This document shows, one piece after another, positions 4,027-63,121 of a stretch of 64,000 bases of DNA (the stretch's first letter is position 1; each line of letters starts with the position of its first letter). This DNA comes from a virus, in IMG/VR virus record IMGVR_UViG_3300030102_001905, positions 1 to 64,000 of that record; one strand, given 5' to 3'. The position numbers and the translations under genes are program-made. The notes under the pieces were generated by a model that was given only the letters and a program-made list of their open reading frames with translations, searched no databases and was not told the DNA's origin.

Positions 4027-4028
4027 TT

Positions 4029-9900: not shown

Positions 9901-10201
9901 TGCAGATTATACTATACCTGATGGTTTAGTTAATACTGCAGAATACAGAATCATAAAAGCTGGAACTGGAGATTATAAAATAAACTATACTGTAAATAGA
10001 TATGTACCATATGATCCTAATGCTGCACAAGGCACAACAGGAATATATGTACCCGAAACAGCAACTGCACCTGTAGATTTTTCATTAGGTTTACCTGGTG
10101 TAGATAGACAAGTAAAAGAACTACAATCTTATTTTGAAGGCATACGTAATTCAAATAGACTTGCCAAGAAAAAAGATACAGAGCAATACGGAGAGAGATA
10201 A
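6959..10201 (+). CDS. Large hypothetical virion protein (1080 aa)
   Basis: Uninterrupted ORF. Its stop overlaps the ATG of the giant ORF (TAATG at 10199-10203), implying translational coupling. No recognisable motif. Confidence 0.85.
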   Translation: MATYIKGADTYLPEITPFTPDFKFLSAVLDTRTDKYDANFQATNDLYNKVVYADLSRQDTKDRRDQYAETIAPQIQQISGLDLSLQQNVDQAKSVFAPFYDDDLTVKDIVYTKQYRDEMAYANRLLDNPDQVQREKYWETGIRKMQYEMDDFINGSESAALSAPLPKYIEDADLNELAQQILSEMDPPLKMKMDRFATDEDGNVQTDFIITEQNGRLVTGAALNIIKNRLLDDPRVQRAYYADAFVKSRDFAAAGMNAGQFNTVDQGQQAWADETISRINALNEQRTQETIKEVKKLDDANVRWSNYKANNGVVPDSDEAEAIEEQLSVAEQTQQALDDMLNINQEARTPSKSVQGSLNKAYNLLMNYNIMDDMQKAATDFAARDQEYTIRENRFALAEKEFKYDLALERARAANALNLEALKQKNRLDLAAAKGELMQVDPLASILTKPGVEVGDGSSTVVAVDDDGEISPNTDMVLLNQQQFQNEDNKIHNNQVNGILESLQILDPKGNTAAQDQTYQLKGSDGNVLMIGGVPLEGNIETLRNLLTQANTNEEDGSVISYINREIVDQVYDIQADRVKDTKQVTMNDPNVTLSEDQRTQYDDLYNAFFGLNGIETQRNTLAVHTKKINDLTLQAYDLMESEALAESKGKNNINLLTQAGFPRIVDANGSVLSKEEYTNLVIQGVENGTIENPDLYGYDSGTGNKNYKVHAYTTQYYEFGPQKTYQYDSQGKPVMEIDRSAVANDVNAIYDQMYNMLNQARTGAKGDIPTATYNSLRYGADQNPSDAISMPTYTYPINPLAGLDPNARAEMVNLFNQLNTFDKKGQVYGILPGDLDNVDVEDLLTKNPLAVRALELYKEDLATYLNDPKQSRTDKIAPIATLKYKPVYGPAGEAVKTTAGYQIIFSPEWLASKKAGTTDAPVGAFTTAEIRQLQGLDDESETSAGISIVFEQRLDNNTKGTNNSYYSFVESDILASENGFADYTIPDGLVNTAEYRIIKAGTGDYKINYTVNRYVPYDPNAAQGTTGIYVPETATAPVDFSLGLPGVDRQVKELQSYFEGIRNSNRLAKKKDTEQYGER

Positions 10202-26600: not shown

Positions 26601-29367
26601 AGATTCAGAAGGAAACTTTACTGGGTTTTATACACAAAAAATAGGACAGCAGTATTATAACCTACAACAGGAACTAAGAAATGAGTTGTATGATAATGAT
26701 GGACATCCTTATGAGTATAGAGATATAAAGAATCTTGATGAGGCAAGTGAAGAAGATATAAAGTATAATAAAGCATTAGCTGAAAAGAAAAGCAGGTTAT
26801 CAGAATTTTTTAGAGCAGAGACTAAAGATGAGAATGGTGATCTTGCTGACGGAGAATATCATAGATATACAGATGAATTCAAGGCTGAAAGAGATAAGTT
26901 TGAGTTCTGGGTTCCTGGTAGTGAGGCTAGTCCAAATGGTACTTGGTATAGAAAACCTAGAATATCAGATAGAGACTATGCAATCTATGAAGCAAAGTAC
27001 TATGACTTTATTGGATACACAAAAGCAGTTAGAGTAAATGGTCAACCTACCGGTGCTATAGTAAAAGATCAAACATTTAGATCTCCAAAGCCGGAATATA
27101 GAGAGGCAAGAGAAATAACTAGCAAAGGTGAAGATATGCGTAATGCAAAGTATGTAGAGATCATGAGTCCTACAGATGCATTAGGTCAAGCTAAAAAAGA
27201 ATTCTATGAGTTATTTATAGACTTATATGAGAATGATTTACTTAATAAATTACCAGTGGGTGTAAGAACGCAGATGCTTGGACGTGTGCCTTTAGTTAAA
27301 AATAATGTTATTGATGATCTTAAAGGCAAACCAAATCTAGTTACTAAACTATATGCTAAGACTATTGGTAGTAATGCATGGAATATGTTTAAGCAAACAT
27401 CTCAACAAAAGGGTGTTGTAACTGATGAGAATGGTAATATGATTAGTACTCTTCCTATCTTCTATACAGGTAGACCAAAGGTTGACGGTGAAATGGAAGT
27501 TGTAGAAAAAGAGATTAGTAATCTACAAGCAGAGTATAAAAAGGGCAGGATAGTTAAAGACAAGTATGATAAAGAACTAGCAATACTTAATGGTAAGTTA
27601 TCAAGACTTAGAGCTACACCATCCCTAGGTCAAATTAGTACTGATATGACTACAAGTCTTTTGAAGTTTAGTGCTATGGCACAGAACTATGAGACTATGG
27701 GTACCATTGAAGATACTCTTAATGCTATGATTAAAGTATTAGAGAATAGAGAGTATACTCCTGCTGATACTTCTATAGAGACAGGTAAATGGTTAGATGG
27801 TCAATTCAAAAAAATTGGTAAGAAAAAAGGAGAGGGTGTTGAAGCAAATGTTGTAAGAAGAGCTAAGAAGTTTATGTCTATGGTTTATTATGACAATGAA
27901 CTTGTATCTAAAGGCTTCTTTGATAAACTTGCTGATGGTTTAATTCAGCTATCTTCTTTGTCATATGTTGCATTTAACCCTTTTGGTAACTTTAATAACT
28001 ACGTTATTGGTAGAATAAACAATAACATAGAGCTTCTTGGTGGTAGATTCTTTGGTAAGGCTGCTTTTATGAGAGCAAGTCTAGAGTTTAATAAAAGAGC
28101 AATACCGGATCTAATAAAGAGAACAAGTTATAATACTACAGATCTTGCTGACATAGCAACATTAGGTGTTATACCAGGTTTAAATAAATCAGATTATGAT
28201 CCAAAGAAACCAAATAGTAAGTACGAGGCATTTGTAGATCTATTTAGAATGATGGATAAGATGTCTGATATACGTGAGCAGTCTGCTGCAACTACAGGAG
28301 AAAGAAGTTGGTTTGCACGAGCTGCTGAATGGGGATATGTTCTTCAGGATTCTGCAGAATATAATGTACAGACTAAGGTGGGTATGGCCCTTCTTATGGA
28401 TACTACAATAAAAAATAGCACAACTGGTGAGACCTTATCTTTATATGATGCATTTGACTATGATGCTAAGACGCATAAGAATGTTCTTAAAGAAGGATAT
28501 GATACTATTGTTAAGAAGAATGGTACTGAAGTAGAGTATACAGATCAGTTTAGATATGAATTAAGAAATCAAATCAGAGAGGTTAACAAACAAATACATG
28601 GTAACTATGCAAGAGAAGATAGAATGGTTATGCAAAGCACAACTATTGGTAATCTTGCGGCTCAGTTCCATAAGTGGGTTGCTCCAGCTATTAGAGCAAG
28701 ATACCAAAGAGAATACTTTGATGAGAACTTAGGATGGATGGAAGGTAGATATATATCATTCCTTAAGTTTTTATCTTATATGAAGAATGAAATATCTAAA
28801 GGTAACCTACAGATGAGTAGTTATGGTAAAGGTTTCTTAAAAGAGTATGGCTTTACTGGTGAAGGAGGAAACAGAGATCAGAGAGCAAAGAATAAATTGT
28901 TTGGTTTCTACAGAACTATGGGTGAGATTGGTATTATGTCATCCGTATTCTTACTGAGTCAGATATTAAACTCAATATTAGCAGGAGAAGATGATGATGA
29001 TGAGGTAACTAAGAGATTTAAAAATATGGCCAAGTATCAAGCGGATAGAACATATAAAGAACTTATTATGTTTACACCACTTCCTCCGGGGTTACAGCAA
29101 CAATTCCAGATGTTAAAATCACCTATAGCTTCTACTAGAACATTGGGTGAAATAGGTGAGGCATTATCATTAACTGTAATGACACCTCTTGCATACATGG
29201 TACAAAGTGAAAAAGATTTCTACGCTAACTCTGAGTATGTGTACCAGAACAAGCCTAGAAAGGGAGAGCTCAAGGTTTATAAGAACTGGAAAGATGCTGT
29301 TCCTATTTTATATACTATTCAGAAATGGGATGCTTACTTAAACATGGAAGATTTCTTTATTAAGTAA
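23683..29367 (+). CDS. Giant virion-type protein (1894 aa) containing a RecB-like PD-(D/E)XK nuclease motif set
   Basis: GTADLVIIDKNGKIKIVDLKTTK (nt ~25270-25335: D...D-x-K) is followed by QVNLY (QxxxY, nt 25486-25500). A hydrophobic segment IGIMSSVFLLSQILNSILAG lies near the C-terminus. Confidence 0.6.
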   Translation: MATCLNVNLPEYKALKDVYKTDVDTANVVNNWQKLNNVDTFPTVLEAQDFVSNQKLAFSLRQRQFSDALLNNLRRERIGHSYQGSFYVNNSNPTTREYDEMYLASNLKRLKRYLQINNIPENRVTLERTAKTYRVTVNEDMFSAKDMIESSRSWDTPRARAVVMHLKRMFPQINVQMLSVSQARQMYEGFPEWKKNNVPFDQMRSFYVDGVAYLIKGRVTDEVAIEEMLHPFVDAIKIDNEGLFNSLLAEARSNFPEMVQEIEDSYNEERSFNDVERDLEIVTQALSRHFNKEYENQPTKRFLDRVKEVLEWFRNIINNLNEYLTGRAIPVSEINANTSMSDIAKLLNTEGIQFKLESRVNGKVRYSLSPEKKKVVDAALAEANGLQAEIIDRLFFQARASEQEIDSLSANLNDTSSGTIVTLNEENHTYVDITNGEIYTSVTTAIKGELKNQEDVQLNLDIGNDVDALLDAIVTHRKLEDVIPEMKILSEETAKETYNNLSTTLANIMPEGSVALSQVVVFDEATKLAGTADLVIIDKNGKIKIVDLKTTKNSLKTLSYTDTISGRRQRKLYDKEWDLSEDSLLKQAGVDTLSTRGQHNLQVNLYRRMFENMGYTVYDGDYAASTIHFVAGITGKGKNQKFDGNIKADQWVDHPASQNALYVDKLVPRITDNVESEKLESAIENAEDAIYKGEKEFQEDEFVADSIDPNEYPEYNTILGALENYRIGLLDRKKALEQIKSSIFMDRTKEQTQENIASTLAYIGIAISEGPISRSQAYSSLLRDALKQVKSFSDYIQDPKNFGKSEYITYALNFDRFIKTFEGLYAIADSKELNATQRSLVLSLQLELNKLSGGSTNQPGLIDTAIDNYVKEIIKTRSGRDFGGEGSVFTMEDLDELMKIAPDINGTEYMTRDMATSPDVILALMDKIYKAKKQELLDRIGDREALIRAAGAKLLKLSSESDVEKLYDFMLERDSEGNFTGFYTQKIGQQYYNLQQELRNELYDNDGHPYEYRDIKNLDEASEEDIKYNKALAEKKSRLSEFFRAETKDENGDLADGEYHRYTDEFKAERDKFEFWVPGSEASPNGTWYRKPRISDRDYAIYEAKYYDFIGYTKAVRVNGQPTGAIVKDQTFRSPKPEYREAREITSKGEDMRNAKYVEIMSPTDALGQAKKEFYELFIDLYENDLLNKLPVGVRTQMLGRVPLVKNNVIDDLKGKPNLVTKLYAKTIGSNAWNMFKQTSQQKGVVTDENGNMISTLPIFYTGRPKVDGEMEVVEKEISNLQAEYKKGRIVKDKYDKELAILNGKLSRLRATPSLGQISTDMTTSLLKFSAMAQNYETMGTIEDTLNAMIKVLENREYTPADTSIETGKWLDGQFKKIGKKKGEGVEANVVRRAKKFMSMVYYDNELVSKGFFDKLADGLIQLSSLSYVAFNPFGNFNNYVIGRINNNIELLGGRFFGKAAFMRASLEFNKRAIPDLIKRTSYNTTDLADIATLGVIPGLNKSDYDPKKPNSKYEAFVDLFRMMDKMSDIREQSAATTGERSWFARAAEWGYVLQDSAEYNVQTKVGMALLMDTTIKNSTTGETLSLYDAFDYDAKTHKNVLKEGYDTIVKKNGTEVEYTDQFRYELRNQIREVNKQIHGNYAREDRMVMQSTTIGNLAAQFHKWVAPAIRARYQREYFDENLGWMEGRYISFLKFLSYMKNEISKGNLQMSSYGKGFLKEYGFTGEGGNRDQRAKNKLFGFYRTMGEIGIMSSVFLLSQILNSILAGEDDDDEVTKRFKNMAKYQADRTYKELIMFTPLPPGLQQQFQMLKSPIASTRTLGEIGEALSLTVMTPLAYMVQSEKDFYANSEYVYQNKPRKGELKVYKNWKDAVPILYTIQKWDAYLNMEDFFIK

Positions 29368-36103: not shown

Positions 36104-36277
36104 ATGAAATATAAGAAGTTACCAAAGCAAAAAATGAGTAGGCAAAAGTTTAAATTACTTTTAGGCAAGGGCGGTGAGCTTGATGAGATAATGGAAAAGT
36201 CTATGTTAGAAAAATATAATAAGGGTGGTAAGAAAGCTAAGTTAGGTGGAGGTACCCATAATACATACAGTGGATAA
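36104..36277 (+). CDS. Lys-rich miniprotein (57 aa, MKYKKLPKQKMSRQKFKLLLGKGG...KGGKKAKLGGGTHNTYSG)
   Basis: Hand-translated. Its stop overlaps the ATG of the fibre-like gene (TAATG at 36275-36279). Confidence 0.45.
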   Translation: MKYKKLPKQKMSRQKFKLLLGKGGELDEIMEKSMLEKYNKGGKKAKLGGGTHNTYSG

Positions 36278-37763: not shown

Positions 37764-37967
37764 ATGGGTAAAGATAAAGTATACATGAAAACAAGAGGTG
37801 CCGGAGATGGTGACCTTACTGCCGGTTTATTAGGAATGATGGACGGTGGAGACGTAACAGAAATGTACGGCTCAATGGGTGGAGCAGAAATGGGAAAAGA
37901 AATATATAAGAGAGGTGGCTCCATGAAGAAGAAAAAGAAAAAAATGAAAAAATCTAAAAGATATTAA
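37764..37967 (+). CDS. Gly/Met-rich miniprotein with a poly-Lys tail (67 aa)
   Basis: Track ORF. ...GLLGMMDGGDVTEMYGSMGGAEMGKEIYKRGGSMKKKKKKMKKSKRY. Confidence 0.5.
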   Translation: MGKDKVYMKTRGAGDGDLTAGLLGMMDGGDVTEMYGSMGGAEMGKEIYKRGGSMKKKKKKMKKSKRY

Positions 37968-38057: not shown

Positions 38058-38255
38058 ATGAAAGAACATATGGAAAACTCCTACTATGATCCTACTTCTA
38101 TTGCACAAGCTATTCAACAAAAAAAGAATAGAAAGCAAGTAGAAGCAAGGATTAGAATGGCAAAAAAAAGTAATTTAAATCCTCCTCAAAAGTCAACTAG
38201 AGCAGCAGAACCTGTTCAGTCAGCAGCTTTTAAGAAAGGATATAGAAAAGGATAA
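38058..38255 (+). CDS. Basic miniprotein (65 aa)
   Basis: Track ORF. Lys/Arg/Gln-rich (QQKKNRKQVEARIRMAKKSN...FKKGYRKG). Confidence 0.5.
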   Translation: MKEHMENSYYDPTSIAQAIQQKKNRKQVEARIRMAKKSNLNPPQKSTRAAEPVQSAAFKKGYRKG

Positions 38256-38624: not shown

Positions 38625-41600
38625 ATGAGTGTATATACACAAGAAGTCTTAGGACTCTTAAAGAGAAATAAAAAGAAGATCAAACTTGATAGAATTAGGG
38701 ATCATTTTGAGTTTGGTAAGCTGTACAGAAACAGTTCCTTAAATACGGGGGCTGCTTATAATCCAACTATGGAGCCCTTTGTTATTAAATGGGGAGACTT
38801 CAAGTGTGCTACAGAAGAAGGTATGGTTAGACAAGACCCTACTGGAACAGAAGAACGTCATATCACTATGTGGACTGATCCCGTCTTTCAAGGTGAGTGT
38901 CAAACAGCTACTATTACTAAAACAATTATATCACAGAATATAGCAGGAAATGAAATTAATATTGCTGGTGATTTAGATGTAGATAATAACTTAAATGTTG
39001 ATGGTAATGCACTTATTGATTTGCAATTAACAGCAGGCTCAGCAAATATTCTAGATCTTACAGAAGACCGCATTGTCATAGTAGGACCTAATGGAGAACT
39101 AGAAGATGATGGTAATCTTACTTTTAATGGATCATTCTTTAATATAGGTCAAGGTAACTTTACTGTGCAAGTAAGCACAGGTAATACTCAAATTGTTGGA
39201 ACTTTAGATGTTGATAGTCAAGCTACTCTTGCTAGTGCAAATGTAGAAGATCTAACTGAAGATAGAATAGTTATTGTAGGTCCAAATGGTGAGTTAGAAG
39301 ATGATGCTAACTTCACAATGGATGGAACTACTTTTACAGCAAATGTGAATGTAGTACATGGTACTGATGTCCCTGGAGGTACTCCAGCTGAGACAACAAC
39401 CATAAACTCTAATTTAAAACTAGAAGGCCCTGTATATGATTCATTAGGTAATATAGGTAGCCTTAACAAAGTACTTGTTGGTTTAGCTGATGGTAGAGTA
39501 AAATGGCAAGATGATGACGTAGTAGAAGCACTTACATATGGTGCACTATGGCAAGGAGATCCAACAAACTACAAAGTAGAATTACCTATTGGTACTGCAG
39601 GCCAGATTCTTATTTCTGATGGTACTACTTTTTCATGGCAAGATGATCCTTATGTAGATGGTAATGGTACACTATACAGATTACCTTTATGGACTCCTGA
39701 TGGAGATTCATTAGGAGATTCTCTTTTAATACAAGATGGAGATGTAAATACTCCAGCCACCCAAGTGCAAAATGATGGTATGCTAAAGAATGTTGGCATA
39801 GTTAAATTAGATAGTGTTGCACAAGATGATACACTTACTCAAGTACTTGTTAGAGATACAGGTAATGCAAACGAAGTAAAATTTAGAGATGCAGCATCAA
39901 TCAAACCTGCAGTTGGTTTTGATACATTAGATATGACACCTGATGGCTGGGCATCTACTGATGGTAACTTTAATGCATACGTAAAACTGGATGACTCAAC
40001 TACACCTATTAAGAATATCAAAGATATGAATTGGCTTGTTGATGGTGATAGAGTTCTTGTAATTGCAGAAAATGTCAAGACTGGTAGTTTGCTAGCAGAT
40101 AATGTTCTTAGATTCCCAACATGGGGAACTGGACAGCAAGTATTTAATCAAACATCTTGGAATCAAGCAAGTATAGGTACTGGTTGGACTGGGGCAATTG
40201 ATAATGGATATCAGACCTCAACTCTTCTATACGGAGAAAAGCTTAAGATTAGGGGTGAAATGTATGATACTCCCGGTGTTTCAGATAGACAAATGAACTG
40301 GGATGCATGCTGTAAAATATATTCTAATAATGCATGTCCTGTTGCAAATAATTTAAACTTTACTATAGATGAAGATACAGGATTATCAAATACTGTAAAC
40401 GTTTCAGATGATGGATATGGTGGTTATGGTTTAACATATACTGTTATTCAGCAACCAAATAATGCAAAAACATTTACTTTTGATACTGCTACTGGTGGAT
40501 TTACACTTACACCAGATCTTAATTTCTTTGGTACAATAACATTTACTTATCAAGCAAATGATGGATACTGTGATAGTAACGTAGCTACAGTAACTGTAAC
40601 AGTTAATGCTGTTGATGATGCTCCAGAATGGACATCTACCGACCCTGTAACTGCTAATACATATCCTAACCTAACAGGTGGTGATACATGGACATACAAC
40701 TGGACAGTTGCAGATGCAGATACACCTTGTGGTAGTTTAACATTCCCATCTCAGACTATTCCAAGCTGGTTAACCTTTACTAATAACGGTAACTGTACTG
40801 GAACATTAACTGGTACTTTTCCTAATACTGGTGGTAATTTCCCAGTTCAATTAAATGTTAGTGATGGAACAAGTACAGCCTCACAATCATTTACAATTGG
40901 TGGTTTAGCTGTAACAAAAGATACATATTTTGTATTTTGGAGTGATACTTCTGGATCTATGAATACTACTATTAGTGTAATGTCTAGAATGGTAAGTGCT
41001 GCAGAAGTTAAGGTACAAGCTACTACTATTTCAGGTTCTAGTGTTACTTTAACAAATGGTGCTAATACTAGAAAAATAAATGATTCTACAGGTACATGTT
41101 CTAAAGCATTCTTAGCTATTCATGATGGAATGGAAGTAACTGCAGGTGGAAGTGGTGTACCAAGTGGAACTACTGTAGTAAGTGGTGGTGGTACACAAAA
41201 CCTTACACTAAGTAACAGTATTACTAGTACATCTGGTACAGTCCTTACATTTAAGCCAACACAAGCTATGAAAGATGCAGACTATGCTGACACAACTAAT
41301 TTAAGAAACTTGTTACAAGATTTCTATGCAACAGGTGGTACTAAAGGAAGTGGTAATACTGATCCGGCAACTAATGGTCAAGACTTTTATGACTCTCATA
41401 TATATTGGTGCCATGACCCTGTTGAAAGACAAATTGATCATTTAGGAAATAGAGGTCAAGGTAATACAATTGGTCCAAGTGGATATTTTCCTGATGCTGA
41501 TGGAGTAGTTGTAATGGGATTTGCTGATGAGTCTAGTGATTATGGATTAGCAGGAACCGGTGGTGGTACTTGGGCTGACCGTGCAAGTAGTACAGTAGGT

Positions 41601-41966
41601 AACATTACTACAGATGTTAATACTGTAAAGAACTTTATAAATGCTCTAGAAACAGCTGCTGGAAATAATACTATATATAGAGGTATTTTCTTTAATGTTC
41701 TTGGAGGTTATACTCCTGGTCACGATAATCTTGAACCTTTATTAGGGCCAACAGGATTGAACGCTACAGGTGGTGTAATTGCAAATGGATTTGGATATCC
41801 TCCTGCAGCATCAGCTTATGATCCTGTAAATGATACATTATATCCAGAGTCACACGGGTCTCCAACTAGAATTAAATATAGACCTGATATGACAGATGGT
41901 GCTTCTCAATCTTATTACTATAATGAGGTTAGAGCAGGGCTTAACAGTGTAGGATTTAGCTTGTAG
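38625..41966 (+). CDS. Large tail fibre / adhesin (1113 aa) with tandem repeats, a cadherin/VCBS-like segment and a C-terminal vWA-like MIDAS motif
   Basis: The ~64-aa repeats are LDLTEDRIVIVGPNGELEDDGNLTF (nt ~39051-39125) and VEDLTEDRIVIVGPNGELEDDANFTM (nt ~39243-39320). VTVTVNAVDDAPEW lies at nt ~40600-40631. YFVFWSDTSGSM (DTSGS = nt 40944-40958) and VVVMGFADES also occur. Confidence 0.6.
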   Translation: MSVYTQEVLGLLKRNKKKIKLDRIRDHFEFGKLYRNSSLNTGAAYNPTMEPFVIKWGDFKCATEEGMVRQDPTGTEERHITMWTDPVFQGECQTATITKTIISQNIAGNEINIAGDLDVDNNLNVDGNALIDLQLTAGSANILDLTEDRIVIVGPNGELEDDGNLTFNGSFFNIGQGNFTVQVSTGNTQIVGTLDVDSQATLASANVEDLTEDRIVIVGPNGELEDDANFTMDGTTFTANVNVVHGTDVPGGTPAETTTINSNLKLEGPVYDSLGNIGSLNKVLVGLADGRVKWQDDDVVEALTYGALWQGDPTNYKVELPIGTAGQILISDGTTFSWQDDPYVDGNGTLYRLPLWTPDGDSLGDSLLIQDGDVNTPATQVQNDGMLKNVGIVKLDSVAQDDTLTQVLVRDTGNANEVKFRDAASIKPAVGFDTLDMTPDGWASTDGNFNAYVKLDDSTTPIKNIKDMNWLVDGDRVLVIAENVKTGSLLADNVLRFPTWGTGQQVFNQTSWNQASIGTGWTGAIDNGYQTSTLLYGEKLKIRGEMYDTPGVSDRQMNWDACCKIYSNNACPVANNLNFTIDEDTGLSNTVNVSDDGYGGYGLTYTVIQQPNNAKTFTFDTATGGFTLTPDLNFFGTITFTYQANDGYCDSNVATVTVTVNAVDDAPEWTSTDPVTANTYPNLTGGDTWTYNWTVADADTPCGSLTFPSQTIPSWLTFTNNGNCTGTLTGTFPNTGGNFPVQLNVSDGTSTASQSFTIGGLAVTKDTYFVFWSDTSGSMNTTISVMSRMVSAAEVKVQATTISGSSVTLTNGANTRKINDSTGTCSKAFLAIHDGMEVTAGGSGVPSGTTVVSGGGTQNLTLSNSITSTSGTVLTFKPTQAMKDADYADTTNLRNLLQDFYATGGTKGSGNTDPATNGQDFYDSHIYWCHDPVERQIDHLGNRGQGNTIGPSGYFPDADGVVVMGFADESSDYGLAGTGGGTWADRASSTVGNITTDVNTVKNFINALETAAGNNTIYRGIFFNVLGGYTPGHDNLEPLLGPTGLNATGGVIANGFGYPPAASAYDPVNDTLYPESHGSPTRIKYRPDMTDGASQSYYYNEVRAGLNSVGFSL

Positions 41967-42249
41967 ACTTTTCATTTTCTAGTTCTTTTTGTAAGCATGC
42001 TAATGCACGCCATGCTACTTTTGCAGTATGACGAATTCCGTCATCATCTACAGTACCAGCATCAATAAGATGTCTAGCGAGAGCATCATAGTCATCAGTT
42101 GATTTACTACGATCCCAGTGTAATGGTTTATCAGGGTGGTGTTGCTTATTACCAGCTAACGATACCCTTGCTATTTCCATAATAGCATCAGGGAAATATT
42201 TAAGTACACCAGTAAATACTGGCCTTTCTTTTCTTTCTTTGGCATTCAT
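41956..42249 (-). CDS. Small phage protein resembling the DUF5664 / dATP-dGTP diphosphohydrolase N-terminal domain (97 aa)
   Basis: The pattern KERPVFTGVLKYFPDAIMEIARVSLAGNKQH...HWDRS...DDYDALARHLIDAG..DDDGIRHTAKVAWRALACLQ matches my recollection of that family (LDLLP..AL.EVARV...GA.KY...NW..G......LDAL.RHL.....GE..D.ESG..HLAH...). The 3' end overlaps the fibre gene 3' end by 11 nt. Confidence 0.35.
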   Translation of the reverse strand: MNAKERKERPVFTGVLKYFPDAIMEIARVSLAGNKQHHPDKPLHWDRSKSTDDYDALARHLIDAGTVDDDGIRHTAKVAWRALACLQKELENEKSTS

Positions 42250-42421: not shown

Positions 42422-43339
42422 CTATCTACCCATGTAAACATCTTGTAATAGTCTATTGTAGTTGATTTCAGTATCAACCTCTACTGGCTCAAATGTTTCT
42501 ACTTCAACATCAATACCATGCTCTGTATCAGCATTGGTAATACCTAAATCTTCATTATCAAAGTTTAGTATCCATTCTTCATATGGTTTTACAGTAGAAA
42601 GATTGAGAATCTCAGCTGTTATAAAATCATGAAAGTTTTTCTGATCTACCATCCAATCTCTTGGGTGAGCTTTTTTCAATGCATGCGTAACATGATTGTA
42701 GTAAGCCCAGGCAGTTCCTGTCCCTCCTTTATACTTAAAAGAAGGCTTATCTATTTCTTTCTTGATGCAGGTTACTTGTTGTGAGTCAAGCATGTCTTCA
42801 TCTATAAACAACCTTCCTGTCAACTCTGACATTTGTGTAGTAGATAAATCAATCTGCTTCATTGTTTCCTTATCACTAATTAACCTTTTATAATACTTCT
42901 CAGCATTTTTAATCTGACTAGATATATGATTTCTTACATCAGTATCCGCAGCTCCAGTATGTTTTCTTTTATAGTGGTACATGTCTCCTGCACACATACC
43001 ATTACTACATACTTTTACATATGCTCCAATTGTACAATTAAACATTGTACTCTTGTCATATGAATTCACCCAGGTAAACATCATACCCAACTCTTTCTCA
43101 TCATTAATCTGTTGATCTGTTGATGTAGGTTGAATATAATATACTCCCTGTGCAACATTAGCATTCATATTAGTTCTATACTTTTCTTCTAGAACTTTGA
43201 ATCCACTATTCTTAAGTAGGTCTAATGTATTGTCTATCACTGTTTTATGTGATATTACTGTATAACTCTTACCGTGATTTGGTAAAGGTGCATTTTCCAG
43301 ATATGCTCTGGTTGTATTTATTGGTTTTTTATATCCCAT
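42422..43339 (-). CDS. DUF932-family phage/plasmid protein (305 aa)
   Basis: FTWVNSYDKSTMFNCTIGAYVKVCSNGMC resembles the NSHDGS...G..R.VCSNG core of DUF932. Confidence 0.55.
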   Translation of the reverse strand: MGYKKPINTTRAYLENAPLPNHGKSYTVISHKTVIDNTLDLLKNSGFKVLEEKYRTNMNANVAQGVYYIQPTSTDQQINDEKELGMMFTWVNSYDKSTMFNCTIGAYVKVCSNGMCAGDMYHYKRKHTGAADTDVRNHISSQIKNAEKYYKRLISDKETMKQIDLSTTQMSELTGRLFIDEDMLDSQQVTCIKKEIDKPSFKYKGGTGTAWAYYNHVTHALKKAHPRDWMVDQKNFHDFITAEILNLSTVKPYEEWILNFDNEDLGITNADTEHGIDVEVETFEPVEVDTEINYNRLLQDVYMGR

Positions 43340-43390
43340 ATCTTAAACTTTTAAAGTGTAAATATAATAAAAAATACTGACTCACCAAAA

Positions 43391-44224
43391 TTAAAATATA
43401 TATCTAATGGTATCTAATGGAAAAAATTCTTTGTATATGTCTTTGAATTCATTTAGGAGTCTGGTTTTATGCTGTAAAGGATAACGCATAACACCTGATG
43501 CATTTTTTATTTCAGAAGACCTTCTCATTAGTTCTTTTGCAAGCTCTGATGCTCTGGCCATCTGTTGTTTATGATTTGTGAGTGCTATCACCTCACATTT
43601 ATTTATCCCGGCTATTTCTTTTACCTTACTAAACAGTTCATAATATAGCTCTTTCCAATAAAAATGAAATACAAGCGGGCTATAGTTAATATGAACTTGC
43701 CATCCTAAATCCTTGAGACGGTTTACATCTTCAATACGGCTCAATATATTTTGCATTTTAGGCTCAAGTATATTTGAATACTTCTGAGGCATAAGGCTTA
43801 CACGTACTCTAGGTGGTTTATTAAAATGATTTACATCTAATTTTAGTAATCCTGGATACTTAGTAGCCATAGTACTGTTAAGCCGGGGGTGATCATCATA
43901 TCTTTTTAGATAATCAATAAGTGGTTCTGGCATATGTCTTTGCATAAGAACTAAGTCTGAGTTACATGCAACATCTACCATAGTATATATAGGGTCCTGC
44001 TGATCCGGTTCTTTATAAAAAGTTTTTTCCCATTCAACTACAGACTGAAAAATCTGATCAACATTCTTATTTACAAAAACTCTACGTCCATTATAACGAG
44101 ACATATAACAATAAGTGTTTACACAGCCGCCCATGCAACCATAGATTACATTGGGGGCTATGCAGTTTGCACTATTGTTATTGGGTTTTGTAATTAAGGT
44201 TTTAGTATTCTGTACCTTAATCAT
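43391..44224 (-). CDS. Spore-photoproduct-lyase-like radical SAM family protein with atypical Cys spacing (277 aa)
   Basis: NVIYGCMGGCVNTYCYMSR resembles SplB-type GCMGHCHYCY, but the spacing is C-x3-C-x4-C rather than C-x3-C-x2-C. Confidence 0.45.
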   Translation of the reverse strand: MIKVQNTKTLITKPNNNSANCIAPNVIYGCMGGCVNTYCYMSRYNGRRVFVNKNVDQIFQSVVEWEKTFYKEPDQQDPIYTMVDVACNSDLVLMQRHMPEPLIDYLKRYDDHPRLNSTMATKYPGLLKLDVNHFNKPPRVRVSLMPQKYSNILEPKMQNILSRIEDVNRLKDLGWQVHINYSPLVFHFYWKELYYELFSKVKEIAGINKCEVIALTNHKQQMARASELAKELMRRSSEIKNASGVMRYPLQHKTRLLNEFKDIYKEFFPLDTIRYIF

Positions 44225-44615
44225 TTATTATTGGTTTATTTATCACATATGCAGCCTCTGTGCCAGCTATTATCTCTACTCCGTTTACTGTAATATCTTT
44301 TACATCTACTTCATAGAGAGAATACTGTGTGGTAATCTCATCTCCAGACTTAACATCTTTAATTAATTGAAGATGCAGAATTCCACAATCTATATCTCTT
44401 GATTCTTTACAACCAATGAGTTTTGCATTAGGCTCTTTACCATGATTAATAAAACCACCCAATGGAGTTCTAACGTAACGGTTTTCAAATCTTTGGTCAT
44501 ATACATGGGTTACACCTAAATCTGTTCCAGAAGCAATATCTTCTGTAGCAAATAGGCCTAACCCATCTATAACTGATTGTCTAACCGTAACTGAAGGTGG
44601 TAACGGTCTATACAT
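44217..44615 (-). CDS. Minimal SET-domain protein, putative lysine methyltransferase (132 aa)
   Basis: IDGLGLFATEDIASGTDLG (GxG SAM pocket), GGFINHGKEPNAKL (NH..PN) and SGDEITTQYSLY (catalytic Tyr region). The start overlaps the polB stop. Confidence 0.65.
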   Translation of the reverse strand: MYRPLPPSVTVRQSVIDGLGLFATEDIASGTDLGVTHVYDQRFENRYVRTPLGGFINHGKEPNAKLIGCKESRDIDCGILHLQLIKDVKSGDEITTQYSLYEVDVKDITVNGVEIIAGTEAAYVINKPIIND

Positions 44616-46606
44616 TAAAATAATTTTAATTGATTACTACTAACTGCAAGAATATCATTTATCTCTTTTTCTATAGCAGATAAATAATAGGCTTTATTAA
44701 TGTCATATGTTTCCCATTTAGGAGCTATATCCATTTTATTATATACAGTTTGTAACCATTTACCAGATTCTAACTGTATCTCACGCCCATCATTCTTGTT
44801 TACTTTGATAATCTTTACACCTCCATTAGATATATAGTATCTATTTATCTTTTGTAGATGCTCTTCTGTGTAGTTACCTGATTCCACAAACCTAGCTACT
44901 TGTTGCCAATCACCCTTTGATTTACCACCTATACAATAATCAAGTATGTTTTTATTCTTATCCAGATAGTCTTCCGGTAGAATATTATTTACAAAATATT
45001 GATAGATAGCTTTTTTAATAACAAGCTTTGATTTGTTTTTGTGTAACTGAAGATTATGAAAATCAAAACGGCCCTTGAGTTTTACGGGTGCAAATGAAAA
45101 TTTATCATTGTCCACTTTATAAATATAATGTGGTTGTGATTGCTTTAATTCTCTCCACGTGGTTATATCAACATCTTTATAGTTATTCACACCAATATAG
45201 TTATTGACATCCGCAAGGACCAGTTTTTGATATTCATCATGTTCAAGCTGGAGATTAGTAATATCTTCCCACTCTTCACATATTTTCATATAATCATCAT
45301 AGTATTGTCTTGGTATCATTGTCTCAATACCATCTGTATTATGTAATAATGCTACAGCATCAGGTATCCTTTCCATGATTTGCTCATAGAGCATCATCAA
45401 AGTAAGTTGACCGTTTACTGTAATCTTCATACATAACTCTGGATCATAAAAGAAACTATTCTCATCATTACTAAGACCAAAGGTAGAATTGAGTATAATC
45501 TTGTATACATAATTCATTGGGTTGCTCTTAGGAATCTTCTTTCTTTCATTAAAGAACCATTCATACTGATCACAAAACTCCTCTTTAGGAAAGTGACCAG
45601 GTGAAAATTTATTTCTAATAGCTAGATTAGGATAGAAACTAGTGACATCTGATGATATAATAACCATATCATCATCACTTTCATACACACCTTTCTCTCT
45701 AGCACCATGAACACCGCCAAGGCCAAAGTCAGTTTTAACATTTTTATATGTTACACTGTATCTAAAACTGCCTTTTAATCTACTAGGATCTATCTCTAAT
45801 GAGTTAAATCTATCTAGTAGTGTTTGGAATTCTGGTGAAGTAAAATTTACATATGGTAGGATTATATCTTTCATAGCTATAGTATCCCTAAAAGTTCTCA
45901 TCTTTCTGATTTCACTTTTATGAATGTTAAGCTTTTTAGATAGATAGTATCCAAACAATTCTTTACTGATCCGTGGTTCTGAGGCACTAAATAAATTAAT
46001 GCCATATGCTTTAGTAAGTTCTTTTCTTAATTGTATCTGTGATTTAGATCTATTAAAGATTTCTTTTGTTGACTCAACGTCATTAACACAGTACTCTATA
46101 ATAGTATCTAACTCTTCTTGTTTAGTAATTTCTGTATCATGATGAATAGGCATATCTAAAATGTTTTGCCAGTCCATACTATACTGTATCCACTTAAGAC
46201 TAGAACGCTTAGCAGGATTATCCCAGTGGTGCATCTTGAATATATCAATCTGACCTATACTGAGTTTCCATAGTGGATAGTCTGACCATTCTTTATTATT
46301 TGCTTTATGTATACATTTCTGTGCATACCTGAAAATAGTTCTAGCAATCTGATCAGCTGAGTAATCCTCCCATTGAGAGTGATTTTCTATAATATATTGA
46401 GTGACCTGTGAATCAAAGGCCAATCCATTGTAAGAGATATGCCATTGTTTATCATTAACATTCTCTCTAAGAAATTCTATGAAGCTATCAAAATCATTTT
46501 GTAGCTCATGTACAACAAAAACTTTTTTCTCATTTGTCTTATAATGTACAAAGACGCCAACAAAACAATTGGATAGTGTTTCATAGTCCATTACCCAGTG
46601 TTTCAT
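44615..46606 (-). CDS. Family B DNA polymerase with 3'-5' exonuclease (663 aa)
   Basis: Exo I VMDYETLSN, Exo II SYNGLAFDSQ, Exo III YCVNDVEST. Pol motif A SSDVTSFYPNLA, motif B KIILNSTFGL, motif C LHNTDGIE. Confidence 0.85.
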   Translation of the reverse strand: MKHWVMDYETLSNCFVGVFVHYKTNEKKVFVVHELQNDFDSFIEFLRENVNDKQWHISYNGLAFDSQVTQYIIENHSQWEDYSADQIARTIFRYAQKCIHKANNKEWSDYPLWKLSIGQIDIFKMHHWDNPAKRSSLKWIQYSMDWQNILDMPIHHDTEITKQEELDTIIEYCVNDVESTKEIFNRSKSQIQLRKELTKAYGINLFSASEPRISKELFGYYLSKKLNIHKSEIRKMRTFRDTIAMKDIILPYVNFTSPEFQTLLDRFNSLEIDPSRLKGSFRYSVTYKNVKTDFGLGGVHGAREKGVYESDDDMVIISSDVTSFYPNLAIRNKFSPGHFPKEEFCDQYEWFFNERKKIPKSNPMNYVYKIILNSTFGLSNDENSFFYDPELCMKITVNGQLTLMMLYEQIMERIPDAVALLHNTDGIETMIPRQYYDDYMKICEEWEDITNLQLEHDEYQKLVLADVNNYIGVNNYKDVDITTWRELKQSQPHYIYKVDNDKFSFAPVKLKGRFDFHNLQLHKNKSKLVIKKAIYQYFVNNILPEDYLDKNKNILDYCIGGKSKGDWQQVARFVESGNYTEEHLQKINRYYISNGGVKIIKVNKNDGREIQLESGKWLQTVYNKMDIAPKWETYDINKAYYLSAIEKEINDILAVSSNQLKLF

Positions 46607-46627
46607 TCTTTTACATTTTTAATTTAC

Positions 46628-46659
46628 AAAAAAAAGGCACGCAGTGTGCATGCCTTTTT
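46628..46659 (-). terminator. Intrinsic terminator (bidirectional shape) between the 138-aa ORF and polB
   Basis: A8 (46628-46635), stem GGCACGCA-GTG-TGCATGCC (8 bp with 1 mismatch), then T5. On the minus strand the hairpin is followed by a U8 tract. Confidence 0.6.
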
Positions 46660-46698
46660 GACCAGTACCAATAAGGAGTTGGACGGATATAGGAAACC

Positions 46699-47115
46699 CT
46701 ATTGACCTGGCATGATTATAGGTGATGTTTTAGTTTCATCAACATCAACCACGTACTGTTTCCAATCAAACTGCTCTGCATTCACAGCAAACATATTTAT
46801 GAAAAGATCTATATCATCTTTATCAGCAATATAAAATTCTGAGAATGTTTCAACTTGAGCTCTTTGCTCTTTAACAGTCTTCCCGGTTTGTTTATTAGGA
46901 ACTTTTAGCCTCATAGGTTGTCCGTTGTCATCTAACCTGGGCATCATATGAAAAGATTTTTTCATAACTTTACTAATAACAGCTAGTATCCCTGATGATG
47001 GGTCATACATAGCTTCAACATAAGGTGAGTCTAAACTCACCGGTATAAGTGTAAAAGATTTAGCATTTCTGAAGCTAGAGTGAACTAGCAACATATTCTG
47101 TCCAATTTGTGCCAT
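46699..47115 (-). CDS. Hypothetical protein (138 aa)
   Basis: Track ORF with no motif. Followed by the terminator hairpin. Confidence 0.7.
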   Translation of the reverse strand: MAQIGQNMLLVHSSFRNAKSFTLIPVSLDSPYVEAMYDPSSGILAVISKVMKKSFHMMPRLDDNGQPMRLKVPNKQTGKTVKEQRAQVETFSEFYIADKDDIDLFINMFAVNAEQFDWKQYVVDVDETKTSPIIMPGQ

Positions 47116-50861: not shown

Positions 50862-52133
50862 TTACTTCATTGTCATTTGAATGATCTCAGGGATCATCAT
50901 TAGTTTATTAAACTTCTTTTTATTACCATTAAAGATTGTTCTGACAATTAAATACTTAAGATCATTAGTAAAATAATCTGCAGTACATAAAGTCTTCAAT
51001 CTATCAGTAATCTTCTGTGTTACTGTATTCTCTTTAGAGTATACCACAGCATAGTTACCAAGCCTTGTAGCTAGAGTAGAAGCAATATCTGCACGGTAAG
51101 TATCATCCTTACCAATACAACTTCTTAACTCATTAAGAATGTATTGCTCATTATCATGAGTCAATAAATCTACAGGTGTTACAAGCTTGTCTAACTTATT
51201 ATTAATAAAGGTGGTAAACATAGATGCAAAAGCATCACCAACACTACCTTCACCAATCATTTGGATCATAGGTAGACTGTCTTCAAACTTTTCAAAGCTA
51301 GAAATAGCATTAAAGAAAGTTGTGATGGATCTTGCATTTGTTTCTTGTGTCACAAGCTCTGGGTGTAGCAACAAGAAGTTAATACATCTTGTATCTATAC
51401 CTGCTCCTTCTGCCCATTGTGCCCAAACATTTACATCAAACTTAAGATTTGCTGTAATATATCTAGTCTTCTGTGCTGAGTCAACACTATTTACCATATA
51501 GTCTCCATTATCTGGATTTGCTGTGAGAATAATATGCCAGTCTTTTGGAAGAGTCCATGAGATATAAGTTTGTCTATCTATCAGTTCCATAACTGCTTGG
51601 ATAAATCTTGTATCTGCACGGTTCCAATCATCTAGTAATAGAATGCCTCCTTCTTTCTTATCAGCAATCCATTCTGGTGCACAATAAGACATTCTGTTCT
51701 TACCTGTCATTTTGTATCCATTCTTTAGATACTCTTGTACGGCAAGTTCATCTACCCACTGACCAACCTTTTTGGTTACTGTTGTGTTTAGATTAGCTAG
51801 ACTAGCACCAGCTGCTCTTTGAGTTGCTGTTACCATGGCTAAGTTATCAGGTGTGTTTTTTACAGTGACCTGCTTCTCTTTATACATTTGGAATTGACGA
51901 ACAGGAAAACCTACAAGATCACCTATCTCCTCAATCTGAGCAAGGTTAAGCTTTACAAAGTTTAAGTTATTATCCTTTGCTAGCTCAACAATTGTAGATG
52001 TTTTACCAATACCTGATTCACCTACAACTTCTACTGATACTGGGCCTTTACCCTGCTCTTGTAAAAATCTATTATTCTCAATAATGTGGTTAATAAAACC
52101 TTTTAGTTCCGTTACATTTAAATTTACTTGCAT
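50862..52133 (-). CDS. MoxR-like AAA+ ATPase (423 aa)
   Basis: Walker A VGESGIGKTS, Walker B GGILLLDDWNRAD, sensor-1-like IILTANPDNG. It sits immediately downstream of a vWA partner. Confidence 0.75.
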   Translation of the reverse strand: MQVNLNVTELKGFINHIIENNRFLQEQGKGPVSVEVVGESGIGKTSTIVELAKDNNLNFVKLNLAQIEEIGDLVGFPVRQFQMYKEKQVTVKNTPDNLAMVTATQRAAGASLANLNTTVTKKVGQWVDELAVQEYLKNGYKMTGKNRMSYCAPEWIADKKEGGILLLDDWNRADTRFIQAVMELIDRQTYISWTLPKDWHIILTANPDNGDYMVNSVDSAQKTRYITANLKFDVNVWAQWAEGAGIDTRCINFLLLHPELVTQETNARSITTFFNAISSFEKFEDSLPMIQMIGEGSVGDAFASMFTTFINNKLDKLVTPVDLLTHDNEQYILNELRSCIGKDDTYRADIASTLATRLGNYAVVYSKENTVTQKITDRLKTLCTADYFTNDLKYLIVRTIFNGNKKKFNKLMMIPEIIQMTMK

Positions 52134-52139
52134 TTTTAT

Positions 52140-53306
52140 TTAATTTAATTTTATTTTTAATCCTGGTAATTCATCATTTATACTAGAAACACTGCTATGT
52201 ACCCATAAGGTATTTTTTGGGCAGTCTTCTGGTGTATAAGCTTCACCATCTGTTAAGTATATAAGGGCAGTATATCTCCCCTTCTTTTCATTATAGTGAT
52301 CAATTACTGGTTGAAAACTAGTTCCACCACGACCATGTATCTCCCAATCTTTATTTGGATTAAACTCTTTAACACTTTTCAATTCAGTATCACACTGTGC
52401 TACTGTAATCTTATGTCCTGTTTTATGCATATGTGTAAGTTCACCAAAGAATTCCTTTAGCTCTTCACTATTTACAGATCCACTTGTGTCAACACCAACA
52501 AGGATGTGATTCTTAAATTTAATCTTAAGTCCTGGATTTGCTGAGTATCTTTTATTATACTTACGTCTCAGCTTTTTTGTATATACTACACTTGAGTTTC
52601 CTACAAATCTTCTTAAGTAACCTTTCCAATCAAACTTAGGTGGTTCTACATTTAAGAGTCTATTAATAAGCTCTGCTAGCTCACCAGGCACTGTACCATG
52701 TTTCTTCTGTGTTTGTTCAGCACTCTCTTTAATCTGATGTTCTATTTGCTTTTGTAATAGTTTCTTATCTGCTTCTGATAGATCTTCTATCTCATCCCAA
52801 CCTGGATGACAATAACAAGAGTTACCATCCATTTGACTCATCAAGTTATCTAAACTTGGACATGTACCATCTTCTCTAGCCTGTTGTAATAAATCATAAT
52901 ATGTTTTAGTACCGGCTCTCTCAGGAAGATTAAGTTCAGGAAAACTACCAAGCATCAGCCCGCCTTCAGGTAAATGATGATTTGCTATATACTGATTGAT
53001 CTCTAGATCTGCAGCTATATTAAATAACTTTTTATCACTATATAAATCTCTCATAATCATATGCCCGAAACTAATATGTAGTATTTCATGTTTTATAAGA
53101 CCATATCTATGATCTTCACTAAGCTCTGTAAAGAACTCAGGGTTTATAGATAATTGGACACCTATATTTCTTTTACTTACACCTGCAGTAGGTATAGTAG
53201 TAATGTACTCTTTATTAAGTCCAATCAAAAAGAGCCCGTAAAAGGGCTCAGAAAAAATTAATGTTTTAGTAGTTCTAGAAACTAACTCTTGAATATTATT
53301 TGTCAT
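52140..53306 (-). CDS. vWA-domain protein with an N-terminal HExxH metallopeptidase-like domain (DUF2201-like, 388 aa)
   Basis: KHEILHISFGH (HExxH). ILVGVDTSGSVNSEEL (MIDAS DxSxS). ALIYLTDGEAY. Confidence 0.7.
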   Translation of the reverse strand: MTNNIQELVSRTTKTLIFSEPFYGLFLIGLNKEYITTIPTAGVSKRNIGVQLSINPEFFTELSEDHRYGLIKHEILHISFGHMIMRDLYSDKKLFNIAADLEINQYIANHHLPEGGLMLGSFPELNLPERAGTKTYYDLLQQAREDGTCPSLDNLMSQMDGNSCYCHPGWDEIEDLSEADKKLLQKQIEHQIKESAEQTQKKHGTVPGELAELINRLLNVEPPKFDWKGYLRRFVGNSSVVYTKKLRRKYNKRYSANPGLKIKFKNHILVGVDTSGSVNSEELKEFFGELTHMHKTGHKITVAQCDTELKSVKEFNPNKDWEIHGRGGTSFQPVIDHYNEKKGRYTALIYLTDGEAYTPEDCPKNTLWVHSSVSSINDELPGLKIKLN

Positions 53307-62788: not shown

Positions 62789-62880
62789 ATAAATATTGTT
62801 ATTCCTGTTATTAATGACCAGGCTAATATCCTTATCATTATAATTTTAGTTCTTTTGTTCATATCATTTCTTTTCCAAGG

Positions 62881-62954
62881 TGCACCCTACAGGGCTTGAA
62901 CCTGTGACCTACCGGTTATGAGCCGGTTGCTCTGACCAACTGAGCTAAGAGTGC
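62881..62954 (-). tRNA. tRNA-Met (anticodon CAT; elongator or Ile2-type)
   Basis: The minus-strand sequence GCACTCT-TA-GCTC-AGTTGGTCA-GAGC-A-ACCGG-CTCATAA-CCGGT-AGGTC-ACAGG-TTCAAGC-CCTGT-AGGGTGC-A folds as a canonical cloverleaf. G1-C72 are paired, and there are no 3 G-C pairs at the base of the anticodon stem, so it is not an initiator. Confidence 0.85.
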
Positions 62955-62957
62955 AAG

Positions 62958-63042
62958 TAGCCGGAGTGGGACTTGAACCCACACGGGCTTACAGCCCAAC
63001 AGATTTTAAGTCTGTCATGTCTACCAATTCCATCATCCGGCC
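62958..63042 (-). tRNA. tRNA-Leu (anticodon TAA), class II with a long variable arm
   Basis: GGCCGGA-TG-ATG-GAATTGGTAGA-CAT-G-ACAGA-CTTAAAA-TCTGT-TGGGCTGTAAGCCCGT-GTGGG-TTCAAGT-CCCAC-TCCGGCT-A. There is a G1-U72 wobble. Confidence 0.85.
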
Positions 63043-63047
63043 ATATG

Positions 63048-63121
63048 TGATCCCACTAGGACTTGAACCTAGAACCTACAGCTTAGAAGGCTGTTGCTCT
63101 ATCCAGTTGAGCTATGGGACC
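63048..63121 (-). tRNA. tRNA-Arg (anticodon TCT)
   Basis: GGTCCCA-TA-GCTC-AACTGGATA-GAGC-A-ACAGC-CTTCTAA-GCTGT-AGGTT-CTAGG-TTCAAGT-CCTAG-TGGGATC-A. Confidence 0.85.

Follow-up and report, generated by a model that had tools for sequence, protein, structure and literature searches.

The 64,000-nucleotide stretch of marine phage DNA analysed here (IMG/VR record IMGVR_UViG_3300030102_001905, positions 1 to 64,000, called the window in the following) encodes on its minus strand, directly behind a DNA polymerase gene, a small protein that is very probably a methyltransferase of the SET fold. Its open reading frame (ORF) runs from ATG to TAA at 44217-44615 in the ORF list of the window and specifies 132 amino acids (MYRPLPPSVTVRQSVIDGLGLFATEDIASGTDLGVTHVYDQRFENRYVRTPLGGFINHGKEPNAKLIGCKESRDIDCGILHLQLIKDVKSGDEITTQYSLYEVDVKDITVNGVEIIAGTEAAYVINKPIIND). 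We propose that the SET gene shares an mRNA with the polymerase, which is of the family-B type, and is expressed from it by translational coupling, that the SET protein, being translated from the polymerase mRNA, would be produced within the cell while replication is under way, that it would not be a component of the virion, and that it would most likely transfer a methyl group from S-adenosylmethionine (SAM) to a lysine of a host protein that is conserved across bacteria. To this explanation as a whole we assign a probability of about 0.55, and the single statement that the window protein is a protein-lysine methyltransferase acting on a host protein stands at roughly even odds. SET enzymes are best known as chromatin writers of eukaryotes and as effectors of intracellular pathogens. 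The gene and its parts are located as follows:

44217-44615, minus strand: SET-domain ORF, whole gene including the TAA (ORF list, Pfam SET, phrog_28741, identical protein in 55 assembly blocks)
44310-44615, minus strand: SET core, residues 1-102, common to all family members (homologues cover about 77% of the query; predicted local distance difference test, pLDDT; Foldseek)
44547-44564, minus strand: GLGLFA, residues 18-23, the GxG cofactor-binding motif (family alignment; pairs with GLGLYA of MLL-type SET domains)
44427-44447, minus strand: NHGKEPN, residues 57-63, the NHSxxPN motif (pairs with INHSCAPNC of the MLL4 SET domain)
44322-44339, minus strand: EITTQY, residues 93-98, the ELxF/YDY motif (pairs with EELTYDY of the MLL4 SET domain)
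44217-44309, minus strand: C-terminal tail, residues 103-132, and the stop codon (pLDDT below 50; absent from most family members; motif in common with the relative L009)

The SET gene is not an assembly artefact, since the identical protein recurs in 55 blocks of an assembly collection, one of them a 112.5-kb Tara Oceans scaffold. Near-identical DNA for positions 43000-47000 was not found in the phage collection. An ORF of 71 amino acids on the opposite strand (44151-44366) lies almost wholly inside the coding regions of the SET gene and of the downstream gene of the spore-photoproduct-lyase (SPL) family, and we take it to be spurious.

The Pfam model SET (PF00856) matches the protein with 29.1 bits, above its gathering score of 22.4 (E = 1.4e-6), and is carried by all 120 relatives listed, while the family phrog_28741 covers residues 1-103 with E = 3.6e-21. 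A search of the PDB with the single sequence gave only non-significant matches, the lysine methyltransferase LegAS4 and vSET being the nearest ones (E = 0.2-0.6). A family profile was built from an alignment of 58 relatives (A1), which is also the basis of the conservation figures and of the AlphaFold2 model. This profile matches MLL-type SET domains (MLL2-4) in the PDB with E values of about 3e-8 to 4e-8 and vSET (1n3j) with 4e-7, profile positions 8-98 being aligned with vSET residues 5-105, and the alignments pair GLGLFA with GLGLYA, (F)INHSxxPNC with (Y)INHSCAPNC and GEELTAKY with GEELTYDY. The AlphaFold2 model has a mean pLDDT of 75.7 and is confident for residues 1-99, with values below 50 for residues 100-132. 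Searched against the PDB with Foldseek, the model has none but SET lysine methyltransferases among its 50 best matches, with a probability of 1.00, including Set7 of S. pombe, MLL1, vSET, PFL0690c of Plasmodium, ASH1L and NSD1; for vSET the template modelling (TM) score, normalised on vSET, is 0.69 at about 21% identity. Among the top matches in the viral structure database BFVD, those that bear a name are SET proteins from uncultured tailed phages and from giant viruses. An earlier reading of the window made from its letters alone (the sequence-only reading) had suggested profile search and structure prediction as checks of the SET fold, and both agree with it, the family profile by matching SET domains at about 1e-8 and the AlphaFold2 model by its Foldseek matches.

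All three SET hallmarks named in that reading are present, with GLGLFA at residues 18-23, FINH at 55-58 followed by PN at 62-63, and EITTQY at 93-98. Two details had to be adjusted: NH and PN are separated by three residues (NHGKEPN), which is the canonical NHSxxPN spacing and not the one written as FINH..PN, and the tyrosine described as close to the C-terminus, Tyr98, is close to where the SET core ends, with 34 residues still to follow up to the true C-terminus. A second tyrosine is found at residue 101. Of the residues of the catalytic and cofactor motifs G18, G20, N57, E93 and Y98 are invariant in the 58 relatives, and H58, S59, P62 and N63 are conserved in at least 90% of them; further invariant positions are P4, S14, I16, G34, H37, R49, P51, L52, G53 and F55. 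This pattern fits a working enzyme, and we infer that the window protein is a genuine, probably active SAM-dependent methyltransferase.

The second part of the explanation concerns expression, for which the following features are needed:

44613-44617, minus strand: TAATG junction of polymerase stop and SET start with one shared base (sequence)
44615-46606, minus strand: DNA polymerase of 663 amino acids with family-B-type motifs, directly upstream (phrog_1252, E = 1e-134; motif series; weak match to Pol II of E. coli)
43391-44224, minus strand: radical-SAM ORF of 277 amino acids of the SPL family, directly downstream (Pfam SPL, E = 2.7e-15; TIGR03886, E = 2e-37, which is below the cutoff of this model)

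As the sequence-only reading had stated, the start of the SET gene overlaps the stop of the polymerase gene: the minus strand reads TAATG at 44617-44613, where a single base (A) is common to the SET ATG and the TAA of the upstream 663-residue gene. At the other end the SET stop and the ATG of the downstream 277-residue gene overlap by 8 nucleotides. No terminator-like site was found on the minus strand between the polymerase, SET and SPL genes, the GC content is flat at 0.33-0.34 across all three, and in the 25 bases before the SET ATG no purine-rich stretch resembling a Shine-Dalgarno sequence is visible. Because of the gene overlaps, the missing terminator-like site and the flat GC content, co-expression of the SET protein by translational coupling is likely, and polymerase, SET and SPL genes likely form one transcription unit.

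The polymerase matches phrog_1252, annotated as 'DNA polymerase', and shows a series of motifs in the right order (D7xE, N60GLAFD, Y172CVND, D320VTSFYP, K369IILNSTFG and HNTDG at 422), which correspond to ExoI-III and to the polymerase motifs A (DxxSLYPS), B (KxxxNSxYG) and C (DTDS) of family B. Its only polymerase-like match in the PDB is Pol II of E. coli, weakly aligned at motif B and non-significant (E = 0.56). Because of the motif series, the phrog_1252 match and the Pol II alignment 'polB' is a fair label for a divergent family-B member; it has to be called divergent since no polymerase model of Pfam matched.

Compact core and C-terminal tail

Core members of the family are more compact than the chlorovirus enzyme vSET. 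Most relatives have 97-113 amino acids and end 2-8 residues past Y98/Y101, and from the first strand to the catalytic tyrosine the family has 91 profile positions compared to 101 residues in vSET and 118 in MLL4. The segment from GLGLFA to NH measures only about 33 residues, therefore the helical SET-I insert appears to be largely gone, and a post-SET domain appears to be absent from these mini-SET proteins. In canonical enzymes, for which they are typical without being strictly defining, the SET-I region and the post-SET element build the groove for the peptide and seal the lysine channel.

The window protein has 30 additional residues at its C-terminus, which are also found in one relative (L009, 143 amino acids). 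The two tails, KDITVNGVEIIAGTEAAYVI in the window and KDIQVHGIDIISGTEIGYII in L009, have the motif KDIxVxGxxIIxGTExxYxI in common, and since it has been kept in the L009 homologue despite only 50% identity over the whole proteins, the tail appears to be under selection. That the tail replaces the missing C-terminal flank is a reasonable guess.

vSET (PBCV-1 A612L) is a dimeric histone H3K27 methyltransferase of a chlorovirus with 119 amino acids. The size comparison with vSET made in the sequence-only reading holds (132 against 119 residues), and both proteins are virus-encoded, single-domain, minimal SET proteins. They share only about 21% identity (phmmer E = 0.6), however, and between first strand and tyrosine the core of the mini-SET proteins falls short of that of vSET by about 10 residues. 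vSET acts on the eukaryotic histone H3, which is absent from a bacterial host; as the host of the window phage is presumably bacterial, judged from its phage-type genes, and has no histones, the window protein cannot share this substrate. It does not belong to the vSET lineage but is a structural analogue within the superfamily.

Distribution and gene context of the family

The family is already catalogued as phrog_28741, uncharacterised. Its members abound in marine phages and are likewise common as chromosomal genes of SAR11 bacteria, which are among the most abundant bacteria of the sea; probably the family also occurs on chromosomes of some other marine bacterioplankton. The sequence-only reading had regarded SET proteins as rare in bacteria and rarer in phages. 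For this family that holds only among deposited phage genomes, where a homologue was found in 9 of 50,697 records belonging to six distinct phages (Pelagibacter phage Kolga, Prochlorococcus phages P-SSM7 and P-RSM6, a marine single-cell virus, a Caudoviricetes metagenome-assembled genome (MAG) and Rhodoferax phage P26218), but not for IMG/VR with at least 580 family loci or for GTDB, which holds one genome per species, with 278. Most of the 80 GTDB loci listed are from Pelagibacteraceae (SAR11), the others from Flavobacteriaceae, Marinimicrobia and other marine MAGs. The SAR11 form is chromosomal, has 134-146 amino acids and is enlarged by about 40 residues inserted behind the PN motif. A large protein database contained 809 clusters at E<=1e-3, and a profile search of 1.84 billion representatives at 50% identity returned 2897 sequences at E<=1e-3, 793 at 1e-10 and 39 at 1e-30.

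Kolga gp27, PSSM7_204 and the proteins of P-RSM6 and P26218 belong to the same family as the window protein, with 32-43% identity over residues 1-103 in tblastn and the same invariant residues. These phage relatives have about 100 amino acids, end just after the catalytic tyrosine and occur in other genomic contexts, whereas the window protein has its 30-residue tail. In the two records examined Kolga gp27 and PSSM7_204 are both annotated as 'hypothetical protein', and phage SET proteins are listed without characterisation in genome papers (e.g. PMC9025141); no functional study of a phage SET protein was found in the literature searched. Neither NCBIfam nor PADLOC gave a match for the SET protein, which therefore shows no link to known defence systems. 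The charge of the family is mixed (median isoelectric point 5.6, range 4.3-9.6) and for this reason gives no clear hint at the substrate. Of ten longer family members that were scanned for fused domains, one was informative, namely the metagenomic protein P0161 (363 amino acids), in which an Amidoligase_2 domain (PF12224, 2e-18) is joined to a C-terminal mini-SET.

The order polB-SET is restricted to the clade of the window phage, consisting of L009, L011/L012 and L013 from IMG/VR and of L088, a contig binned with a Campylobacteraceae MAG. The SPL gene is missing in L088, and L013 has an extra ORF between polB and the SET gene. Within the clade the polymerases are 71-78% and the SPL proteins 82-84% identical, the SET proteins only 50-56%. 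A polB homologue within 6 kb of the SET gene was found in 7 of 80 loci. Expression together with replication genes, as proposed in the sequence-only reading, is thus supported for the window by the 1-nucleotide overlap, the common strand and the missing terminator-like site, but linkage to the polymerase is not a property of the family. Outside the clade the adjacency of SPL and SET genes was seen once, on the unrelated contig L024, where a distant SPL homologue (32% identity) lies directly upstream of the SET gene.

A second, independent case of a SET gene beside a replicative polymerase, of a different polymerase family, is L177 (TARA_SAMEA2623579_METAG-scaffold_918, 2137-6650). Here the member P0086 with 112 amino acids lies between the halves of a split DnaE-type Pol III alpha, in the order PHP+DNA_pol3_alpha (623 amino acids), SET, RNase_T-like exonuclease (224 amino acids) and DNA_pol3_finger/HHH_6 (547 amino acids), and the first 8 nucleotides of the P0086 gene coincide with the last ones of the first polymerase half.

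For a partner of the SET gene we compared 30 window proteins with 167 loci by tblastn, clustered 2012 ORFs all against all and scanned 95 large neighbours with Pfam. None of the three approaches revealed a family-wide partner, and across 76 viral loci no neighbouring family occurred in more than 9. The large neighbours are mixed and include PD-(D/E)XK nucleases, clamp-loader ATPases, ribonucleotide reductase, terminases, glycosyltransferases and others. A link of the SET gene to a small nucleotidyltransferase and a P-loop kinase was rejected after a check with hidden Markov models, as the 'viral' loci in question copy a gene order of SAR11 chromosomes and are probably cellular fragments.

Two conserved contexts were seen in SAR11, one with an aminotransferase, alanine dehydrogenase, SET and a dimethylglycine-dehydrogenase-like protein and one with a class I methyltransferase, a Rieske oxygenase, SET and a protein of the M24 peptidase family (L096, L097, L123, L150 and other Pelagibacteraceae loci, SET gene at about 4001-4441). 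We read their Pfam families as suggesting that the SAR11 neighbours are genes for the catabolism of methylated compounds. In cyanophage P-SSM7 the SET gene lies among the auxiliary metabolic genes nrdAB, talC and hli. At L004:1559-7101 (JGI 3300045477) the member P0117 is directly followed by a Tad6-family gene and preceded by genes for CTP_transf_like, dihydrofolate reductase, thymidylate synthase and an Acb3-family protein, so that this SET gene may lie in a region of anti-defence or accessory genes. In a single instance, the phage-like contig L175:4001-6981 (JGI 3300043015), a gene for an HU-type DNA-binding protein (PF00216) is located 2.4 kb downstream of the mini-SET gene. All in all the SET gene behaves as a mobile accessory gene, which is often but not always found in modules for replication or nucleotide metabolism.

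Candidate acceptors and rival explanations

Homologues are found in phages of SAR11, Prochlorococcus and Rhodoferax as well as on SAR11 contigs among ordinary metabolic genes. Because family members thus occur in phages of unrelated hosts, some hosts carry a copy of their own and no phage partner travels along, a conserved host target would be expected, and a lysine on a conserved host protein is ranked first because the nearest solved relatives are protein-lysine methyltransferases. The sequence-only reading had named host HU-like nucleoid proteins, Lys-rich miniproteins of the phage and the translation apparatus as possible targets. A bolder version, which we consider possible but doubtful, is that the mini-SET proteins of SAR11, of other marine bacterioplankton and of their phages all act on one universal bacterial target, and that the phages reset this target during replication. 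Candidates would be a central metabolite or, among conserved proteins, the ribosome, EF-Tu, RNA polymerase or a nucleoid protein.

Several points weigh against the proposed explanation. Lysine is not the only acceptor that SET enzymes use: free methionine serves as the substrate of BurB (PMC12542666), and SETD3 is referred to in PMC11462206 as the methyltransferase of actin histidine-73. Because these two proteins methylate other acceptors, the fold alone does not fix the acceptor. The window protein moreover belongs to a subfamily that appears to lack most of SET-I and any post-SET element, the invariant His37 and Arg49 lie near the predicted active region without an assigned role, and at residue 59 of the window protein a glycine replaces the serine of the NHS motif that at least 90% of the relatives possess. 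As to expression, a promoter scan gave no more sites than in shuffled sequence, and co-transcription is read from gene spacing only.

The main rival, to which we give a minor share of the probability, is an auxiliary metabolic gene whose product methylates a free metabolite such as methionine, another amino acid or an osmolyte. BurB of Burkholderia thailandensis, which converts methionine into S-methylmethionine, is a proven methionine S-methyltransferase and resembles the window protein as a small, single-domain bacterial SET protein using SAM; its pocket takes the free metabolite in the position of the lysine channel (PMC12542666). The apparent loss of most elements of the peptide groove in the mini-SET proteins (91 positions compared to 101 in vSET and 118 in MLL4) would suit a small substrate, as would the auxiliary metabolic genes around the P-SSM7 copy and the putative methylated-compound catabolism genes around the SAR11 copy, although gene neighbourhood in the streamlined genomes of SAR11 is weak evidence. 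On the other hand the closest sequence and structure matches listed are all protein methyltransferases, and no biosynthetic partner genes accompany the phage copies. BurB differs by its 172 amino acids and tetrameric state and is absent from the 5 single-sequence, 60 profile and 50 fold matches listed, its presence in the searched libraries being unconfirmed.

Less probable, and in our view unlikely, is that the SET protein methylates proteins of the phage itself, either replisome components from the same operon or Lys-rich miniproteins of the structural region. The position of the gene within the replication operon directly behind the polymerase gene, the member between the polymerase halves of the unrelated phage contig L177 and the existence of Lys-rich small ORFs (36104-36277 with 25% Lys and 37764-37967 with 21% Lys) speak for it. 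Nevertheless nothing phage-encoded co-varies with the SET gene, no family reaching more than 9 of the 76 viral loci, which makes methylation of own proteins less likely; the family is also chromosomal in SAR11, where those phage proteins are lacking, most members have no such polymerase homologue within 6 kb, and the Lys-rich ORFs are putative, lie on the other strand and belong to the structural module.

The least probable alternative, which we consider very unlikely, is a protein with weak or no activity in the window phage that would serve as a binding module or as a SAM-binding protein or SAM sink, or a decaying accessory gene: Gly59 in place of the near-invariant serine, the apparent lack of a post-SET element, the lower identity of the SET proteins in the clade compared to polymerase and SPL, and the codon differences to a 98%-identical variant (L170/L171; 5 synonymous and 3 non-synonymous ones, E25K, G59S and N126D, in the SET gene compared to 29 and 4 in the adjacent polymerase gene, counts too small to carry weight) could be explained in this way, but the other motif residues (G18, G20, N57, H58, P62, N63, E93 and Y98) are intact, many metagenomes contain precisely the same sequence, no relative of the clade has a disrupted ORF and L009 has kept the tail. 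Ser59 is present in the 98%-identical variant P0001, and the Gly59 form is a natural allele and not an error, since it is present in the 55 assembly blocks including the 112.5-kb Tara Oceans scaffold.

Among prokaryotic SET proteins we compared LegAS4/RomA of Legionella, cpnSET/NUE of Chlamydia, BaSET of Bacillus and Go1-SET of Methanosarcina. The statement in the sequence-only reading that known prokaryotic examples methylate nucleoid proteins applies to cpnSET, which acts on Hc1, and to the archaeal Go1-SET, which acts on MC1-alpha, both being DNA-binding proteins of the organism itself (PMC10117894). It does not apply to most characterised bacterial SET proteins, which are secreted effectors acting on eukaryotic histones and are mostly larger and multi-domain (PMC10117894), nor to BurB with methionine as its substrate. 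LegAS4 is the top named bacterial sequence match of the window protein, although non-significant, and P0112, which represents the longer form of SAR11, gives E = 4.2e-6 with the AnkI/LegAS4 model, far below the cutoff of this model. Unlike the secreted effectors, the window protein has neither a secretion signal nor extra domains and would be made by a phage inside a bacterium.

If the bolder version with one universal bacterial target is correct, the mini-SET family would, to judge from the literature searched, provide the first SET methyltransferase of a phage whose function is defined. It would also be the smallest working SET enzyme known, and its peptide groove would be completed by a partner protein, through oligomerisation or, in the window phage, by the tail. 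The identity of the acceptor would reveal a new kind of host modification by marine phages, explain why a SET gene is retained in a streamlined genome and set the lower size limit of a working SET domain, of which a version with about 100 residues is common in ocean viromes and on SAR11 chromosomes. For the window itself the result is modest, namely an accessory gene of the replication operon that is now correctly named and carries no rarity; the points of interest are its compact core, the lineage-specific tail and the sharing between SAR11 and phages.

The replication operon and other genes of the window

The SET gene is part of a long minus-strand operon for replication and recombination that extends from about 63.9 kb down to 42 kb. 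It starts with a helicase (ResIII and Helicase_C), a protein of the uracil-DNA glycosylase family and a DnaB-like helicase, followed by an AAA_24 ATPase, a primase and a weak RusA-like match. Then come an ORF with a weak AAA_5 match, which precedes a DUF2201 protein on the transcript, and a PD-(D/E)XK exonuclease; the polymerase, SET and SPL-family radical-SAM genes are next, and the operon ends with a DUF932 protein and a protein of 97 amino acids with the N-terminal domain of a dATP/dGTP diphosphohydrolase.

The SPL protein (43391-44224, minus strand) carries the cysteine motif CMGGCVNTYC, i.e. C-x3-C-x4-C, and is, as given above, 82-84% identical across the clade. The 97-residue ORF (41956-42249, minus strand) matches PF18909, the dATP/dGTP diphosphohydrolase N-terminal domain, with 4.8e-11 and phrog_27780 with 7.7e-34, and is the best-conserved gene of the neighbourhood with 84-88% identity in the clade. 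No Pfam match of the adenylosuccinate synthetase type was found among the other operon ORFs scanned. At 50862-53306 (minus strand) the AAA_5 ORF, with 423 amino acids and a sub-threshold match, adjoins the DUF2201 protein, which has metallopeptidase-like and VWA-like domains. Three tRNA genes for Met (CAT), Leu (TAA) and Arg (TCT) are clustered at 62879-63121 on the minus strand.

On the plus strand the window contains two giant ORFs with 4491 (10201-23676) and 1894 amino acids (23683-29367). Of the large ORFs flanking them only 184-1857 has a clear PHROG match, to an endolysin / lytic tail protein domain. The two putative Lys-rich small ORFs mentioned above (57 and 67 amino acids, plus strand) and a third putative one at 38058-38255 (plus strand, 65 amino acids, 15% Lys) lie in a plus-strand block upstream of an ORF of 1113 amino acids (38625-41966), and they are probably the 'Lys-rich miniproteins' that the sequence-only reading had listed as possible targets.

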